Source of the DNA: a virus
Taxonomy: Duplodnaviria; Caudoviricetes
IMG/VR virus record: IMGVR_UViG_3300031942_000005
Span: 1 to 57,643 of that record
Length of the DNA stretch: 57,643 nt
Direction: 5' to 3' (one strand)
Positions 1,255 through 11,663 of the stretch are shown here, piece by piece (positions within the stretch are counted from its first letter, which is position 1; the number at the start of each line of letters is the position of its first letter). The notes beneath the pieces are model-generated. The model searched no databases, was not told the origin of the DNA, and saw nothing but the letters and a program-made list of their open reading frames with translations. Position numbers and translations under genes: made by a program.

Positions 1255-1795
1255 CCCGCCGGCCGCAGACGTGGCCGAGGAGACGGCCGAGTACAACGAC
1301 GACCCCGTGGTGCTCGAGTTCATCGGCCTGCCCCACCCCCAGGGTTCCAAGAGCGGGGTGTGGAACGAGCGGCTGGGGCGCGTGCTGGTGCTCGAAGGCA
1401 AGTCGGACCAGGGCCGCATGAAGCACGAGGCGTGGCGGGCCGCGGTCTCGGTGGGCTGTCGCCAGTGGCTCACCCGCCACCCCCGGCCCCCCTACGCCGA
1501 GCCGGTCCAGGTCGACATCGAGTTCCGCTTCCCCCTTCCGGCCTCTGGCACCCACCGCCACCGCCACACGACCAAGCCCGACCTCGACAAGCTGGTACGG
1601 GCTACCTTCGACGCCATGGTGGTGGGGGGACTGCTGGCCGACGACGCCCGGGTGTGCGGCCTGATCGCCCGCAAGCGCTACGCCCGGGGCACCGAGACTG
1701 CCGGGGCCTCGGTGACCGTGTGGCCGCTCGGGGCCGACGAGCAGCGCGACCGCGAGCGCTCCAAGGCAGCGGCAAGGGAGGCGCGTAGACGGTAA
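1235..1795 (+). CDS. rusA: RusA-family Holliday junction resolvase
   Basis: PHPQGSK and KPDLDKLVRATFDAM...DDARV catalytic Asp motifs. Confidence 0.9.
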   Translation: MTLFELDPPAADVAEETAEYNDDPVVLEFIGLPHPQGSKSGVWNERLGRVLVLEGKSDQGRMKHEAWRAAVSVGCRQWLTRHPRPPYAEPVQVDIEFRFPLPASGTHRHRHTTKPDLDKLVRATFDAMVVGGLLADDARVCGLIARKRYARGTETAGASVTVWPLGADEQRDRERSKAAAREARRR

Positions 1796-6138: not shown

Positions 6139-6276
6139 GTGGGTGAGCGCAGGTCATGGTGGCGCCCCTACATCACCTGGGGGCGCCGGCAGTTCCGCAT
6201 CGGCGTCTGGCGTCAACGCCGCGACCGGGTCTGTCCCGAGTACAGGTTCATCGGAGTGGAGAACCAATTGTGGTGA
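6139..6276 (+). CDS. small hypothetical protein
   Basis: GAGGG RBS then GTG; fills the gap and overlaps the next start. Confidence 0.4.
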   Translation: MGERRSWWRPYITWGRRQFRIGVWRQRRDRVCPEYRFIGVENQLW

Positions 6277-6416
6277 GCGAGGAGACCTGCCGTTCGTGCG
6301 GCGCGCCGATCACCTGGGTCAAGACGGAGTCGGGCAAGTGGATGCCGCTGGACCCTGACGGCACCTCGCACTTCGCCACCTGCCCCGACGCCGCCAAGTG
6401 GCGGAAGAAGCGCTGA
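6273..6416 (+). CDS. small Zn-finger phage protein
   Basis: CRSCGAPITW...GKWMPLD...SHFATCP. Confidence 0.75.
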   Translation: MSEETCRSCGAPITWVKTESGKWMPLDPDGTSHFATCPDAAKWRKKR

Positions 6417-9055
6417 TGGACCGCACGATCGAGTACATGCCCGTGGCCGAGCTGGTCGAGCGCTTCCACCCGGCCAACCCCAAGGACCACGACCTCGAGG
6501 AACTCAGACGTTCGATGGAGCGCTTCGGCTACACCGAGGCGGTCATGCTCGATGAGCGCACCGGGCTCATGGCGGCGGGCCACGGGCGCATCGAGATACT
6601 CGCCCACGACATGGCCGAGGGGCTGTCGCGCCCCGACGACGTGACCGTGGACGAGCGGGGGTGGCTGGCCCCGGTGCAGCGGGGCTGGCACTCCCGCAAC
6701 GACGTCGAGCTGCTGGCCTACGTGGTGGCCTCCAACCGCATCGCGGAGAAGGGCGGGTGGGTGGACGCCGGGCTGGCCGACGCCCTCCAGCTGATCGCCT
6801 CCACCTCCGAGCTGGGCCTCGAAGGCATCGGCTTCAACCTCGACGACCTGGCCGCGCTCAAGTACACCGGACCCGACGAGCCGGACCAGATCATCGCCAG
6901 CCGCAAGCTGGCCGAGCGCTTCTTGGTCCCACCCTTCTCCATCCTCGACGCCCGCCAGGGCTACTGGCAGGAGCGCAAGCGGGCCTGGATCGCACTCGGC
7001 ATCCAGAGCGAGCTGGGCCGCCCGCAGAACGCGCTGCGCCCCGAGATACCCACCGAGGGCAACGCCCGGCTGCGCAGCGGGGCCTACGGCGCCCAGGCGC
7101 ACATCGGGCCCGACGGCCGGCTGGTCTACACCCCCACGGTCGGCATCGTGTCGATCTTCGACCCCGTGCTCTGCGAGGTGGCCTACCGCTGGTGGTGTCC
7201 CTCGGGAGGCCTGGTGCTCGATCCCTTCGCCGGGGGGTCGGTCCGGGGCATCGTGGCCGGGCGCCTCGGGCTGGAGTACGTGGGCTACGACCTGCGCGAG
7301 GACCAGATCGCGGCCAACGAGGTGCAGTGGCAGGCGATCCACGGGGAGGGGACGGTGCGCTGGATCCGGGGGGACTCGCGCGCCGCCCCTCTGCCCGAGC
7401 GGGCCGACTTCGTGTTCACCTGCCACCCAGCGGGCACTCGGGTGTCAGTCGTGGGGCGGGGGCGCGTGGCGATTGAAAACGTGGAGCCGGGGGACTACGT
7501 GGTGTCACATACGGGACGCTCGCGGGAGGTGACCGAAGTGCTGGCGCGCCAGTATTCCGGCCCGCTCTATGCCATCAAACGTTCCTATAGGCAGGCCCCG
7601 CTGCATGCCACGGCTGAGCATCCTCTGCTGGTGTCACGAGGCGGCTCCACCGCTTGGCGGCGAGCGGATGAGATACGGGTGGGCGATGAGCTGGTCGAGC
7701 CTGTGCCTACCGAGCCTCCCAAGGTGTTAGACGGCGAGATTATCTGGGAACATCCACCCCAGAAGGGCCGAGGCAGACCCCCCAGGGGGAACCGTCAGGT
7801 ATATGCCACCCCCGAGGTGTGCCGACTCCTGGGGTACTACCTGGCAGAGGGATCAATCGGCGGCCACGCCGTGCAGTACGCCTTTCATGCGGACGAGGTG
7901 GAGTACCACCGCGATGTGACCGCTCTGCATGGGCACATTTTCAGCGCCGACCTGAGCGTGAGGACGCGCCTCGCTCCTGGGACGAAGCAGGCCGATGTGC
8001 ATGCCTGTGGCGCGGTGCCCGCTCGTTTCTTCGCCAATACAGGGAGGGGCGCTCACGCGAAGAAGTTCCCTGGCTGGCTCTGGGACTGTTCCGACAACTT
8101 GCTCACCGAAACCCTTGTTGGCGTATGGCGAGGCGATGGCTGGCGCTCTGGCGGTCGGCTTGGCTATGACACCGTGAGTGAGAACCTCGCTGAGGACATA
8201 CGGAGGGCGCTGCTAAGGCTTGGCGTGGTGGCGTCAGTACGGTGTCGGCACCGCGGGGCCACCAACTATGGGTCAGCTCGCCCCGTGTGGAGCCTGACGG
8301 TGAGGGGAGCGCAGGCAGAGCGCCTGGCATCCATCCTTGGCTGGGCGCTCCCCGCCCCCACAGAGAGAGTCCGAAGCCGGGGGGACGGCAAGGCGGGCCG
8401 TGCGGCATGGTTTGGTCGCCGGCCCTCACGGAGTCCATACATCCAGGCTGGATATGTCCACTACCGGGTGGAGAAAATCGACACGAAAAGTGTCAAGGCG
8501 CTGCCGGTGTTCAATTTGGAGGTGGATGCCGACCACTCATATCTTGCCGATGGAGTGGCGACTCATAATTGCCCGCCCTACTACGACCTGGAGAGGTACT
8601 CCGACGACCCCGCCGACCTGGCGAACGCGGCCACCTACGCGGAGTTCCTGGCCGACTACGCCCACATCATCGGCCGGGCCGTCGAGAGGCTCCGCGACGA
8701 CCGCTTCGCGTGCGTCGTCGTGGGGGAGGTGCGCGACGGCGAGGGGTTGTGCCGGGGCCTGGTCCCCGACACCGTTCAGGTGTTCGAGGCGGCAGGGCTG
8801 GCCCTGTACAACGAGGCCATCTTGGTCACGCCCGTAGGGTCCCTCGCCGTCCGCGCCGCCAAGATCTTCGAGGCGGCCCGCAAGACCGGCAAGGGGCATC
8901 AGAACGTGCTGGTGTTCGTCAAGGGCAACCCCGAGCTGGCGGCGGGCGCCTGTGCGCCGGTGGAGCGTCTCGACCTCACCGAGGCCGAGGCCATAGGCCA
9001 GGACCTCCCCGAGGAGGCCCCCAGACAGCCTCAGGAGGCCCGGACCCAGGCGTAG
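6416..9055 (+). CDS. ParB-like N-terminal domain plus DNA amino-methyltransferase, intein-containing
   Basis: HPANPKDH...RFGY...AGHGR ParB-like motif; LDPFAGG SAM-binding motif; FT|CPPY motif IV split by the intein. Confidence 0.88.
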   Translation: MDRTIEYMPVAELVERFHPANPKDHDLEELRRSMERFGYTEAVMLDERTGLMAAGHGRIEILAHDMAEGLSRPDDVTVDERGWLAPVQRGWHSRNDVELLAYVVASNRIAEKGGWVDAGLADALQLIASTSELGLEGIGFNLDDLAALKYTGPDEPDQIIASRKLAERFLVPPFSILDARQGYWQERKRAWIALGIQSELGRPQNALRPEIPTEGNARLRSGAYGAQAHIGPDGRLVYTPTVGIVSIFDPVLCEVAYRWWCPSGGLVLDPFAGGSVRGIVAGRLGLEYVGYDLREDQIAANEVQWQAIHGEGTVRWIRGDSRAAPLPERADFVFTCHPAGTRVSVVGRGRVAIENVEPGDYVVSHTGRSREVTEVLARQYSGPLYAIKRSYRQAPLHATAEHPLLVSRGGSTAWRRADEIRVGDELVEPVPTEPPKVLDGEIIWEHPPQKGRGRPPRGNRQVYATPEVCRLLGYYLAEGSIGGHAVQYAFHADEVEYHRDVTALHGHIFSADLSVRTRLAPGTKQADVHACGAVPARFFANTGRGAHAKKFPGWLWDCSDNLLTETLVGVWRGDGWRSGGRLGYDTVSENLAEDIRRALLRLGVVASVRCRHRGATNYGSARPVWSLTVRGAQAERLASILGWALPAPTERVRSRGDGKAGRAAWFGRRPSRSPYIQAGYVHYRVEKIDTKSVKALPVFNLEVDADHSYLADGVATHNCPPYYDLERYSDDPADLANAATYAEFLADYAHIIGRAVERLRDDRFACVVVGEVRDGEGLCRGLVPDTVQVFEAAGLALYNEAILVTPVGSLAVRAAKIFEAARKTGKGHQNVLVFVKGNPELAAGACAPVERLDLTEAEAIGQDLPEEAPRQPQEARTQA
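7421..8569 (+). mobile_element. Intein (383 aa) with LAGLIDADG homing endonuclease
   Basis: Starts CHPAGT; block B ATAEHP; LLGYYLAEG and LVGVWRGDG motifs; ends VFNLEVDADHSYLADGVATHN then Cys +1; atypical codon usage. Confidence 0.93.
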
Positions 9056-9112
9056 GGGGGAGTAGCCCAGGGGTCACCATCAGGGGCTTGTGCGGCTGCG
9101 TAGGCTGGCTGC

Positions 9113-9352
9113 GTGGAACGCGACGAGCGCGCTGAGCGTGAGGAAGTCGAGCCGACCCCCGAGCCGGAGGAGGAGCCCGTAGACCACCACCGGGGCCCGC
9201 TGGACCGGGACGAGGACGGCCGCTTCTTGGACCGCGACGACCCCCGCCGCCTGGAGGCAGAGGAGCGCCTGGGCAAACGGTTCGATCCAAGTGACGAGGG
9301 CAAATCGGACGAGGAGATCGTCGAGAGTGCCCTCCGCGAGCCCAGACGATGA
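9113..9352 (+). CDS. small acidic hypothetical protein
   Basis: Glu/Asp-rich ORF; its stop overlaps ATG 9349. Confidence 0.55.
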   Translation: MERDERAEREEVEPTPEPEEEPVDHHRGPLDRDEDGRFLDRDDPRRLEAEERLGKRFDPSDEGKSDEEIVESALREPRR

Positions 9353-9396
9353 CGCTGCGCAGAGGTTCGGGCGTGCGCCTCGTCGTGCTCCACAGG
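9349..9396 (+). pseudogene. Relic 5-prime end of the endolysin (MTLRRGSGVRLVVLH)
   Basis: Aligns with endolysin N-terminus MTLRR...GGSSVRLVCCH; similarity ends at the HNH stop codon. Confidence 0.7.
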
Positions 9397-9837
9397 TCAG
9401 CGCCGCGGGCGGTGCGCCTCTCGGACCACCATGCAGGCGCGGCACATCCGGCTGCGCGGTGCGCCCGGTGGCCGGTACGTGTTCGCCGCGTCGTAGGGGT
9501 GCCCGGCGGGGCAGTGGGTCTTACGAGCGTTCAGCGCGCTGAGGGTCTCGCCGCGCCGGTTGTTCTCGCGGTGGGTGACCAGCTCCAGGTGCGCAACGTT
9601 GACGCAGCAGCGGGTGCGGCAGAGGTGGTCCACCTCCAGGCCCGCCGGGATCGGTCCATGCGCGAGTTCCCATGCCACCCGGTGCACGTAGGTCTGACCC
9701 GCCTCGCGCCCACCCCGGCCGATGACGCCGTAGCCATTGCCGTTGTTCGCACCCAGCCACAGCCAACAGTCGTCGGGCCCACCCTTGCGGACCCTGCGCC
9801 AGAGGCGCTCAGCCAGAGGTATTGCCTTACGAGGCAT
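9397..9837 (-). CDS. Free-standing HNH homing endonuclease
   Basis: DDCWLWLGA...GYG...VHRVAWELAHGPIPAGLEVDHLCRTRCCVNVAHLELVTHREN; KTHCPAGHPY. Confidence 0.92.
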   Translation of the reverse strand: MPRKAIPLAERLWRRVRKGGPDDCWLWLGANNGNGYGVIGRGGREAGQTYVHRVAWELAHGPIPAGLEVDHLCRTRCCVNVAHLELVTHRENNRRGETLSALNARKTHCPAGHPYDAANTYRPPGAPRSRMCRACMVVREAHRPRR

Positions 9838-9853
9838 AGAGGGTCCCCCTAAG

Positions 9854-10768
9854 ATGACGTTGCGTAGAGACTGGATTGCAAGCCCAAACTATAGCTCCCG
9901 TGGTGGGAGTTCTGTAAGACTTGTATGTTGTCATACAGCTGAGGGAGCCCTCACCTACCAGTCGCTGGGCAACTACTTCGCCAGCTCGTCGTCGGGGGTC
10001 TCGAGCCATGTCGGCATCGACTCGACCCCGGGGGTGATCGGCGAGTACGTGGCGCCGGCCAACAAGGCCTGGACCCAGGGCGACGCCAACCCGTGCGCCG
10101 TGTCGGCGGAGCTCTGTGCCTTCGCGGGGTGGTCAAGCGCGGACTGGGCCGCCCACCCGGTGATCCTGGAGAACGCGGCGGCGTGGGTGCGCGAGGAGTG
10201 CGCCCGCTTCGCCATCCCCATCCGCTCGCTCTCCGCGGCCGAGGCCCAGGGTGGCGTCGCCGGGGTGTGCGACCACGTGGACCTCGGGGCGTGGGGCGGG
10301 GGGCACTGGGACTGCGGGCCGAGCTTCCCCATGGCCCAGGTGATCGCAATGGCGACAGGGGGAGCGACCTCTGCGCCACCAGCACAGAGGAGTGGTGCCA
10401 TGGACATCAAGAAGACCAGCGGGGGGTACTACATCTTCGCCTCAGACGGCGGGGTGTTCTGCTTCGGTGACGCGCAGATGTACGGCTCGATCCCGGGCCT
10501 CAAGCCGCCTGTCGTCCTCTCCTCGCCCATCGTGGGCGGGGCGGTCACGCGTTCGGAGCGCGGCTACTGGCTGGCCGGGGCCGACGGCGGGGTGTTCGCC
10601 TTCGGCGACGCGCAGTTCGACGGCTCGATGGGGGGCAAGCGGATGAACGCGCCGGTGGTGGGCATCGAGGCCGATCCCGACGGCGACGGCTACTGGCTGC
10701 TGGGCCAAGACGGCGGGGTGTTCGCCTTCGACGCGCCCTTCTACGGCTCGGCCCAGGGGCACGTCTGA
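9854..10768 (+). CDS. Endolysin: N-acetylmuramoyl-L-alanine amidase plus wall-binding repeats
   Basis: SPNYSSR...HTAEG, SSH, AWTQG, ELC, H...HWDCG amidase_2 motifs; three GY(W/Y)xxxxDGGVFxF repeats. Confidence 0.9.
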   Translation: MTLRRDWIASPNYSSRGGSSVRLVCCHTAEGALTYQSLGNYFASSSSGVSSHVGIDSTPGVIGEYVAPANKAWTQGDANPCAVSAELCAFAGWSSADWAAHPVILENAAAWVREECARFAIPIRSLSAAEAQGGVAGVCDHVDLGAWGGGHWDCGPSFPMAQVIAMATGGATSAPPAQRSGAMDIKKTSGGYYIFASDGGVFCFGDAQMYGSIPGLKPPVVLSSPIVGGAVTRSERGYWLAGADGGVFAFGDAQFDGSMGGKRMNAPVVGIEADPDGDGYWLLGQDGGVFAFDAPFYGSAQGHV

Positions 10769-10774
10769 GCGTGA

Positions 10775-11017
10775 GTGAATGCGGGCGACATCGTCGCGAT
10801 CGTCACCGGCCTCGCCGCTCTGGTTTCTGCCGTCGCCGGGGTCATGCTGGCCGTCCGTGCCGCGCGCTCGAAGGAACGGGCGGCCCATAGCGAGGAGCTG
10901 GAGTCGGTGACCACCCTGCTCGAGACCGAGCGCAAGGAGCGCATCGCCGCCGAGCTGGACCGCCATCAGCTGCGCCTGCGGCTGGCCGAGAACGGGATCG
11001 ACCCCGATGCTCTATAG
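10775..11017 (+). CDS. membrane protein, putative holin/lysis accessory
   Basis: N-terminal TM helix and coiled coil, directly after the endolysin. Confidence 0.6.
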   Translation: MNAGDIVAIVTGLAALVSAVAGVMLAVRAARSKERAAHSEELESVTTLLETERKERIAAELDRHQLRLRLAENGIDPDAL

Positions 11018-11663
11018 GTTCTTCCGCGTCATCTACCGCAATGCCTCGGCGGCCTTCATCGTGGCCTGCCTGTTCACCATCGTGGCCGTCCTCGCCCTCG
11101 CCCTCGGAGCCGAGGCGACACCCACGCCCGGGCCGACCGGACCAGCCGGCCCGCCGGGTCAGAACGGGCCAGCCGGGCCCAAGGGGGACCCCGGGGCGAC
11201 CGGACCTCAGGGCAGCACCGGCCCCACCGGCTCGGCCGGGGCCGACACCGACGCCGGGGGCTCCAGCTCAGGTGGCGGGACCGGCGCGGCCGGGAGCGGG
11301 GGGGCCACTGGCGGCGCGGGGACAGCGGGGACCACCGGCTCGGCCGGGGCGACGGGCAGCGCGGGGGCCACCGGCTCGGCCGGGGCGACGGGGTCAGCTG
11401 GCTCGACGGGCAAGACTGGGGCCACCGGGGCGACCGGGGCTATGGGCAGCGCGGGGGCCACCGGCGCCCAGGGTCCGCCCGGGCCACCCGGAGCGACCGG
11501 GGCCACAGGTGCGACCGGTGCGACGGGTGCGACGGGGGCACAGGGGGCCAAGGGCGAGACCGGACCGGCCGGGCCGCCGTGCCCGCCTGGGTTCAAGCAG
11601 AACCTCATCCAGGTGAACGGCCCGGGGGGCGGCCAGACGATCCTGGTGTGCGTCCGTGGCTAA
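11007..11663 (+). CDS. membrane-anchored collagen-like protein
   Basis: TM helix, Gly-X-Y repeats, C-terminal CPPG...VC. Confidence 0.8.
   Translation: MLYRFFRVIYRNASAAFIVACLFTIVAVLALALGAEATPTPGPTGPAGPPGQNGPAGPKGDPGATGPQGSTGPTGSAGADTDAGGSSSGGGTGAAGSGGATGGAGTAGTTGSAGATGSAGATGSAGATGSAGSTGKTGATGATGAMGSAGATGAQGPPGPPGATGATGATGATGATGAQGAKGETGPAGPPCPPGFKQNLIQVNGPGGGQTILVCVRG

Follow-up and report, generated by a model that had tools for sequence, protein, structure and literature searches.

A probable intron-less HNH homing-endonuclease cassette carrying a re-spelled endolysin start in a tailed-phage genome

Free-standing homing endonucleases, of which SegF, SegG, and MobE are phage examples, are thought to survive between genes, and how one could reside harmlessly inside a tightly coupled essential operon is poorly understood. 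In Aeromonas phage Aeh1, a ribonucleotide reductase is reportedly encoded by "genes in pieces," split by a free-standing endonuclease gene, and fractured genes with split inteins are likewise said to be divided by such a gene. Intron-less homing of free-standing endonucleases with co-conversion of flanking sequence is established for phage T4 (PMC2988022). A 2025 report (PMC11855218) describes the ShiLan domain, a "hidden" out-of-frame HNH within a mycobacteriophage DNA methylase gene whose host frame is free of stops. Here, we analyzed the IMG/VR virus record IMGVR_UViG_3300031942_000005 (Duplodnaviria; Caudoviricetes), which we refer to as the window (57,643 bases; CheckV completeness, 62; fraction of G+C [GC], 0.69). 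It has an antisense HNH_3 endonuclease gene at the very start of an endolysin gene.

Taken as a whole, positions 9394 to 9946 of the window are probably a free-standing, intron-less HNH homing-endonuclease cassette that carries a recoded endolysin start and across which a bridging frame is kept open. The antisense HNH_3 gene, a short divergent spacer, and the re-spelled first 30 or so endolysin codons read as one linked unit. Sequence comparison places this unit at the start of the endolysin gene in scattered members of a group of related phages, with remnants of an older start upstream of it.

The re-spelled endolysin start and its HNH gene

The ATG at position 9349 opens MTLRRGSGVRLVVLH, and the endolysin that starts at 9854 begins MTLRRDWIASPNYSSRGGSSVRLVCCH. 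The features of the locus are the following.

9113-9352, plus strand: small acidic open reading frame (ORF) of 79 amino acids (aa), the upstream gene; its TGA and the old endolysin ATG share bases as ATGA
9349-9393, plus strand: probable relic (stump) of the pre-invasion endolysin start, MTLRR plus GSGVRLVVLH; codons 1 to 5 and about 17 to 27
9349-9852, plus strand: bridging ORF of 167 codons; the old start is in frame with the codon-register antisense frame of the HNH gene
9397-9837, minus strand: HNH_3 endonuclease gene (Pfam PF13392), 146 aa
9838-9853: divergent spacer of 16 nucleotides (nt) with likely ribosome-binding sites for both genes
9854-9946, plus strand: recoded A/T-rich 5' segment of the endolysin gene, codons 1 to 31
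9888-9893, minus strand: TATAGT, a -10-like hexamer 51 to 56 nt upstream of the HNH ATG
9854-10768, plus strand: endolysin, 304 aa, with N-terminal Amidase_2 and C-terminal repeats (GGVFxFGDAQ...)

All coordinates and sequence statements of an initial annotation of this DNA held, including the ATGA overlap, the antisense HNH gene, the TAA that ends at 9852, and the minus-strand TATAGT. The layout is not due to misassembly in a single data set: two further soil runs each have a contig that spans 9000 to 10500 with 0 differences, although these runs may share the window's source. The endolysin matches Amidase_2 (PF01510) at 36.4 bits, above the cutoff of 26, over residues 20 to 141, a range that includes the first zinc-binding His region. 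The His in its ...LH-T-A-E-G is presumably a zinc ligand, as in T7 lysozyme. The 79-aa ORF and the 167-aa frame had no Pfam matches.

HNH_3 is the sole Pfam domain in the minus-strand protein (E = 1.9e-19; 69.4 bits versus a cutoff of 24.8; residues 50 to 94 match positions 2 to 46 of the 46-position profile). Its core, DHLC...N...H(R/Q)EN, aligns with that of seven relatives and is intact, as is the C-terminal CxxGH...CxxC finger. No solved structure gave a significant sequence match to the protein (one matched at E = 0.9). A tblastn search of cultured phages matched 984 records, none above 80% identity, with 41 to 52% identity among the matches listed. A blastn search of the same phages with positions 9000 to 10800 matched 239 records, with a query coverage of 14% at most.

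We searched for relatives with the endolysin and found 14 loci on viral contigs, 35 on metagenome contigs, and 34 on genome contigs. The HNH-free relatives were counted as 18 distinct loci with a 5' end, namely 13 viral loci (L002 to L013 and L015) plus L097, L098, L099, L107, and L131, the last on a contig of an Acidimicrobiales metagenome-assembled genome (MAG). L014 (no 5' end) and L163 (apparent frameshift) were not counted, and duplicates were dropped (L101 and L108 of L015; L103 of L002; L105 and L106 of L013; L119 of L107). L163, at about 2471 to 2560 of a 266-kb contig labelled as an Alphaproteobacteria MAG, contains one additional base where SPNY is encoded and matches only from residue 11. 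Among 80 HNH loci fetched, seven also hold an endolysin homologue, with the HNH gene directly upstream in an antisense or divergent orientation. Their HNH proteins are 71 to 77% identical to that of the window in L016 to L020, which with the window make up six close loci, and 53% identical in L021 and L022.

The 5' end of the endolysin gene differed in composition between the six close loci and the HNH-free loci. The GC of 9854 to 9943 was 0.48, versus 0.72 for the next 300 nt, and this is the lowest 90-nt stretch of the whole window (percentile, 0.016%). GC stayed at 0.47 to 0.53 over 9840 to 9960 and was 0.70 to 0.80 on either side. In all six close loci, the first 90 nt had a GC of 0.48 to 0.53, with 0.50 to 0.53 in L016 to L020, versus 0.67 to 0.72 for the next 300 nt; in all 13 HNH-free viral loci the first 90 nt had 0.58 to 0.71, and the drop relative to the next 300 nt was at most 0.11. 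Overall, the first 30 or so codons were A/T-rich in 6/6 close loci and in 0/18 distinct HNH-free loci. This supports the claim of the initial annotation that an HNH gene moved into the endolysin start together with a recoded replacement for it.

The shift lies at third codon positions. The third-position GC (GC3) of the six close loci was 0.57, 0.38, and 0.45 for codons 1 to 10, 11 to 20, and 21 to 30, and then 0.83 to 0.94; codons 21 to 30 of the window fell to 0.10. HNH-free loci had a GC3 of 0.75 to 0.90 throughout, in ten-codon blocks. By locus, the GC3 of codons 11 to 30 was 0.25 to 0.55 with the HNH gene versus 0.45 to 1.0 without it (Mann-Whitney p = 9e-4). Tyr13 is TAT in 6/6 HNH-containing loci versus TAC in 11/13 HNH-free loci, two serines swap codon family in the HNH-containing loci (TCG/TCC AGC to AGT TCN), and Arg22 is the rare AGA in five of the six. 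A low-GC donor was rejected as the source of the segment, because the HNH gene of the same cassette is GC-rich (GC3 of 0.69 to 0.85 across the cassettes). Since that gene is GC-rich and synonymous sites are saturated, the A/T-rich state is probably maintained, and is neither the trace of a low-GC donor nor a recent accident.

We compared mean nucleotide identity within and between groups. The excess of identity within the six close loci over their identity to 12 HNH-free loci was 0.086 for codons 1 to 31, a value reached in 0 of 2000 label shuffles. For codons 32 to 165 it was 0.015, reached in 275 of 2000. The nearest body relative of L017 is the HNH-free L003 (0.84). Identity between these two was 0.73, 0.60, and 0.60 over nt 1 to 30, 31 to 60, and 61 to 90, and then 0.97 over nt 91 to 120, which places the boundary of similarity at nt ~90. 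The 5' 31 codons evidently group by HNH status and the endolysin body does not; the flank appears to travel with the nuclease gene.

The spacer at 9838 to 9853 contains AGAGGG, a likely ribosome-binding site of the endolysin, the complement of AGGGGGA, a likely site of the HNH gene, and the TAA of the bridging ORF. It is 16 to 19 nt long in 6/6 close loci (17 to 19 nt in L016 to L020), with a conserved CTTAGGGG motif on the HNH strand. Further into the endolysin gene, the plus strand at 9888 to 9893 reads ACTATA, so the minus strand reads TATAGT. This hexamer is the core of a conserved CTATAG palindrome built by Tyr TAT and Ser AGY codons. Beside it, at 9895 to 9909 and within the S-R-G-G-S codons, is a perfect 5-bp inverted repeat, CTCCC-(5 nt)-GGGAG, which is also found in L017 but not clearly in other relatives. 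The minus-strand hairpin at 9909 to 9895 was called terminator-like and is not conserved in relatives by eye.

These elements bear on a different explanation of the A/T-rich segment: it might have nothing to do with nuclease immunity and be kept only as a promoter or leader of the HNH gene, or to ease initiation of an uncoupled endolysin. All six close loci conserve TATAGT on the HNH strand by means of the TAT codon followed by AGY or AAT, and the rare Arg AGA creates a TCTT(A/G)(C/T)A motif 18 to 19 nt upstream in five of them. L021, whose endolysin codons are not A/T-rich, has a 67-nt spacer with an A/T-rich, TAAAAT-like stretch of its own. The GC-rich neighbouring gene also means that low GC is no mark of foreign origin. 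However, a promoter scan called nothing, and the swap of two adjacent Ser codons (TCG AGC to AGT TCT) alters more bases than a -10 box needs. Moreover, GC3 is lowest at codons 11 to 30, not at codons 1 to 10, where initiation effects would act, and the stump at 9349 has lost exactly the most-recoded stretch, which fits removal of a cut site. We therefore consider an exclusively regulatory role plausible but somewhat doubtful.

The open frame across the HNH gene

The frame from 9349 stays open for 167 codons, and its TAA at 9850 to 9852 is one base before the ATG at 9854. Only TTA, CTA, and TCA codons of the HNH gene read as stops on the other strand in this register. The open frame could be the usual shadow ORF of a GC-rich gene. 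In that case the stump would be neutral debris, no ribosome would cross the HNH gene, and the endolysin would initiate independently. Within the window several points favour this explanation: 9 of 24 other genes of 114 to 250 codons also have no TTA, CTA, or TCA, these codons make up 0.47% of codons in 40 window genes (background, 0.0047), and an in-frame fusion has a 1-in-3 prior. In addition, the Shine-Dalgarno-like AGAGGG precedes the new ATG.

The family of eight linked genes argues against it. We found 0 TTA, CTA, or TCA codons in their 1447 codons, against an expectation of 10.9 derived from genes in the same loci (Poisson probability of none, 1.9e-5). As controls we used HNH_3 homologues from other contexts, taken from L023 to L074 with a locus GC of at least 0.62 (31 loci; L075 to L095 were outside this set). 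Their full ORFs had 75 such codons in 6482; only 4 of the 31 genes had none, as did just 2 of the 17 with a GC3 of at least 0.69. In the homologous part, with the duplicate L044 dropped, the linked genes had 0 in 125 Leu and Ser codons versus 35 in 385 for 30 controls (Fisher p = 5.4e-5), and 8/8 linked versus 10/30 control genes were free of antisense stops (p = 9e-4). Third-position identity among the eight linked genes is 0.22 to 0.51, i.e., saturated, and conserved Leu columns use two to four codons (CTG, CTC, CTT, and TTG) but never CTA or TTA.

The ends of the bridging ORFs, which are 158 to 227 codons long in the eight loci, also lie at coupling positions. In 8/8 loci (null, 0.24 per locus), their start codon falls within -8 to +2 of the stop of the upstream gene, but the position of these starts is in part dictated by what is left of the ancestral overlapping start. 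Their stop is within -6 to +8 of the endolysin ATG, again in 8/8 loci (null, 0.26 per locus), of which the six close ones share the spacer by descent; it is 4 to 6 nt before that ATG in six loci and 7 to 8 nt after it in L017 and L022. The null was deliberately generous and used 145 genes of the window and the loci, in two frames each. The start arrangements are as follows.

Window: ATGA
L016, L017, and L018: TAGTG
L020: GTGA
L019: ATGATTGA
L021: ATG, 7 nt before TAG
L022: TGATG

The read-through ORF thus appears to exceed chance, with the antisense frame evidently kept stop-free across the family, and we regard an ordinary shadow ORF as unlikely. The initial annotation had proposed that the read-through ORF preserves translational coupling. 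Its stop-free frame stands, with coupling-type ends throughout; coupling itself may be its role.

Remnants of an older start and the spread of the cassette

The stump at 9349 has a GC3 of 0.87 and an in-frame gap of 33 nt, equal to the 11 codons DWIxSPNYSSR, between MTLRR and GSGVRLVVLH. It sits exactly where the HNH-free L003 and L005 have their endolysin start, and 14 of its 15 residues are identical to the matching codons of these two. L003 reads ...RGSGVRLVVLH and L005 reads MTLRRDWIPSPNHSSRGSGVRLLVLH; therefore, the peptide from 9349 is most simply the ancestral start minus 11 codons. The initial annotation was right that it matches the endolysin start, but the copy is incomplete. Compared as DNA, the stump is identical to L005 at 34/45 nt and to L003 at 32/45 nt. 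It agrees with the window's own new copy at only 24/45 nt (11/30 in the second block), though 12 of 15 residues are the same. The match of stump and endolysin is evidently beyond chance. The SPNYSSR stretch that falls in its gap is present in 21/21 aligned homologues, with single substitutions in five. In the HNH-free L131, a homologue of the 79-aa ORF (59% identity over 37 aa) immediately precedes the endolysin gene and overlaps its start, and therefore the stump appears to occupy the exact site of the old start.

Four relatives have shorter stumps. In L022, an ATG opening MALKRV overlaps the upstream stop 27 nt before the HNH stop, and VALKRI opens the working endolysin. What remains is GTG-ACA-CT in L020 and ATG-CCA-CT in L021, three codons in each, of which the third, CTA, is the complement of the HNH stop; matching HNH-free starts are found in L012 (VTLTRV) and L131 (MPLNRV). 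The stump of L017 amounts to 11 nt at the end of the upstream gene, which align to the first 11 nt of the L003 endolysin gene. These positions indicate that the left edge of the cassette never precedes the point within the old endolysin start at which the upstream gene ends. For the window, the edge is 27 codons into the old start, the HNH stop codon is 3 nt beyond the His codon of the stump, and the stump is the longest of all.

Each of the 18 HNH-free loci has a single endolysin start, which either adjoins the upstream gene's end or overlaps it. Comparison with such relatives had been set beforehand as a test of the invasion claim, and none of them carries both segments. None has an HNH homologue next to the endolysin gene, and L096 to L164 gave no HNH match. 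HNH_3 homologues with 40 to 47% identity were found 2 to 4 kb from the endolysin gene, on the minus strand in L003 (about 8114 to 8530) and at 1267 to 1668 (plus strand) and 6199 to 6567 (minus strand) in L006; these genes lie elsewhere on the contig, so such phages seem to host several of them. Scans for more members of the family added none: a motif scan of viral contigs returned only the contigs of L016 to L018 again, 401 genomes of the class of the L131 MAG gave one distant HNH match at E of 1e-20 or less, and the further loci from metagenome and genome scans with the endolysin were all HNH-free.

To follow the endolysin body apart from its start, we built a maximum likelihood tree of codons 32 to 168 with 20 rows; L015 (79 codons only) and L014 (no 5' end) were omitted. 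It has six changes of HNH state. An approximately unbiased (AU) test rejected the six close HNH-containing rows as one clade (log-likelihood difference, 103; p-AU = 2.4e-12); this group had been named from synteny and HNH identity before the tree was built. Presence and absence of the HNH gene at the same endolysin start, in 8 versus 18 distinct loci, are thus discordant with the body tree.

These results make it very unlikely that the cassette is ancestral and vertically inherited, lost by deletion from the HNH-free phages, with no homing or invasion at all. The HNH lineage is indeed old, with saturated synonymous sites and proteins 53 to 77% identical to that of the window, and near-identical cassettes in different backgrounds, which would mark recent transfer, were not seen. 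However, in addition to the tree, GC-normal stumps lie upstream of the cassette in the window, L022, L020, L021, and L017, and therefore a complete older start probably pre-existed. The HNH-free alleles, for their part, have GC-normal 5' ends contiguous with the upstream gene. A self-splicing intron or other spliced or bypassed insert, with the stump as exon 1 joined after its His codon, is extremely unlikely: the insert lies within a coding region and the stump ends at the very His codon where the two copies become collinear, but a joined product would be without the SPNYSSR stretch of all 21 aligned homologues, the insert itself provides a full in-frame start and a ribosome-binding site for it, any exon-1-like piece in the five closest relatives spans 11 nt at most, the HNH gene runs antisense to its neighbours, and an Rfam scan of 8900 to 10400 at E of 10 or less returned no group I or II intron, only five weak unrelated matches far below gathering scores. 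The intron-less character proposed in the initial annotation is consistent with all of this.

The stretch itself is present in 22 soil runs. No RNA data set is among the runs listed with it, and one run labelled metatranscriptomic covers 9128 to 9338 only, which is uninformative on expression. Contigs of four runs contained no joint that removes the HNH gene. Two candidate joints, 9558 to 10251 and 10021 to 10295, were rejected; their 24-nt sides have 85% likeness and look like other organisms.

Proposed course of events and comparison with known systems

We propose that the cassette consists of the minus-strand HNH gene, the 16-nt divergent spacer with its two likely ribosome-binding sites, and a re-spelled copy of about 31 endolysin codons. 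The phage it entered would have been an ancestral one in which the endolysin start and the stop of the acidic gene before it overlapped. Entry by repair with an illegitimate left junction after His27 would have left a full stump. The stump may later have lost the 33 nt of DWIxSPNYSSR that held the site, through the resident enzyme or simple decay, and Arg codons at both edges would allow such a deletion by microhomology. DWIxSPNYSSR is the most consistently re-spelled stretch and may be the likeliest recognition region of the nuclease. In this model, the enzyme would recognize the wild-type sequence encoding approximately SPNYSSRGG...VRL, and the re-spelled copy would escape. Indirect hints of such cleavage and resistance are the heavy recoding of codons 11 to 26 and the absence of codons 6 to 16 from the stump. 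Selection at the DNA level could keep the segment A/T-rich as an HNH promoter, as a difference from the cut sequence, or as both, with TATAGT driving the HNH gene.

Since the family keeps the frame stop-free, ribosomes could translate across the insert. Ribosomes leaving the upstream gene would reinitiate at the old ATG, cross the insert, and terminate beside the new ATG. This could give translational continuity to the lysis operon, either as coupling or by shielding some 500 nt of otherwise untranslated mRNA from Rho polarity. We tentatively go one step further and suggest that the cassette lineage became "translationally transparent" while lying backwards in an essential operon. Its codon choice would be constrained against opposite-strand stops, and the displaced start would feed ribosomes through to the start that the cassette supplies. 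The replacement segment would then serve at once as enzyme N terminus, nuclease promoter, and cleavage-immune allele. If true, this would be a dual-strand coding constraint set by a selfish element to stay harmless to its host.

Several observations weigh against the cassette model or parts of it. Only eight members were found, and these eight loci are homologous and hence not fully independent. In L021 and L022, the HNH gene occupies this site but the 5' segment is not A/T-rich (GC3 of 0.65 and 0.85), and therefore the recoding is not required for coexistence with such a nuclease. In the contigs of four runs, an HNH-free variant of this very phage was not seen. The open frame is unremarkable in the window alone, as described above, and coupling is not obviously needed because the endolysin has its own likely ribosome-binding site. 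A consensus sigma-70 scan of 9000 to 10900 called 0 promoters, and the -35-like hexamers are weak. Finally, the window HNH protein, like that of L022, is without the ~40-aa N-terminal CxxGH...CPxC finger of its five closest relatives, L016 to L020. Because of this missing finger, its activity may be altered or decaying.

L016 to L020 have a CxxGHxY...R(L/M)C(P/R)xC finger at both residues 1 to 45 and about 150 to 185, so that the HNH core may be flanked by the products of an internal duplication; the window and L022 keep the C-terminal copy only. A second selfish element lies less than 1 kb from the cassette. It is an intein (Hint_2 and Intein_splicing matches; LAGLIDADG_3 at 34.6 bits versus a cutoff of 22.5) inserted in an 885-aa gene at 6398 to 9055 on the plus strand. 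This gene has a ParB-like N-terminal part and split DNA methylase motifs (N6_N4_Mtase at 26.3 bits, slightly below the cutoff). A 218-aa ORF (11007 to 11663, plus strand) downstream of the lysis genes has a hydrophobic N terminus and long Gly-X-Y, collagen-like repeats. L096, a metagenome contig of 1769 nt from another sample, has one mismatch to 9944 to 11392 of the window over its first 1449 nt and diverges within this repeat gene. It begins exactly at 9944, the first codon past the A/T-rich tract, and its end at the cassette boundary may reflect either population variation there or chance. The C-terminal three-fold repeat of the endolysin (GGVFxFGDAQ..., 10390 to 10768) has many homologues in MAG contigs (L132 to L161). 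Of the 34 genome-contig loci, 30 are labelled Acidimicrobiales, Acidimicrobiia, Actinomycetota, or Actinomycetes, and the labels of the endolysin-repeat homologues suggest an Acidimicrobiia-type host.

The window and its seven relatives appear to combine three devices: a re-spelled replacement start, a divergent control spacer of 16 to 19 nt, and a selected open antisense frame. The last is the most surprising element and the most testable, and HNH-synonymous changes that create plus-strand stops would make the locus a model of host-neutral insertion. The stumps would preserve the invasion as a fossil. Ancestral and recoded starts offer a natural pair of candidate cut sites for the specificity of an uncharacterised HNH_3 enzyme. 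For annotation, the cassette would explain the "hypothetical" ORFs of 160 to 230 aa antisense to the HNH gene in such phages. We found no description of an antisense endonuclease cassette with a recoded gene start and a bridging ORF in full-text searches of open-access papers and bioRxiv.

As with the T4-type free-standing endonucleases, the HNH gene is not housed in an intron or intein and is located between or next to conserved genes. It is sporadic among related phages and appears to be inherited with flanking sequence, as in co-conversion. MobE-type enzymes are likewise HNH nucleases, fused to DNA-binding modules. However, the cassette is antisense to its operon and abuts the target start with a spacer of only 16 to 19 nt. 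The linked flank is not a few natural polymorphisms but the strongly re-spelled first 30 or so codons. In addition, a stump of the displaced start survives, and the host-strand frame across the nuclease gene is open. With the Aeh1 gene and the fractured genes, the locus shares a free-standing endonuclease gene inside a conserved coding region whose function is rescued. Those systems reportedly use both pieces, by subunit assembly or trans-splicing, whereas here the 15-codon stump would be non-functional, with the whole protein made from the replacement start.

The ShiLan domain (PMC11855218) is also an HNH homing-type gene without an intron or intein, found in actinobacteriophages, across which the host frame is free of stops. 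Its nuclease, of about 195 aa with a central HNH between zinc fingers, has the same architecture as the proteins of L016 to L020 (184 to 217 aa). We rejected membership in this class of hidden insertions, because the HNH gene here is encoded on the opposite strand; what the two share is an open frame on the host strand. In ShiLan, the HNH is on the same strand in a third frame and the insert is read as host protein. In our locus, that frame forms an ORF of its own, without fusion to the endolysin, and ends with a TAA before the new ATG, and the element supplies a replacement N-terminal coding segment. The cassette may therefore be a second, mechanistically different case beside the overlapping-frame HNH elements that the report describes in actinobacteriophage methylases.

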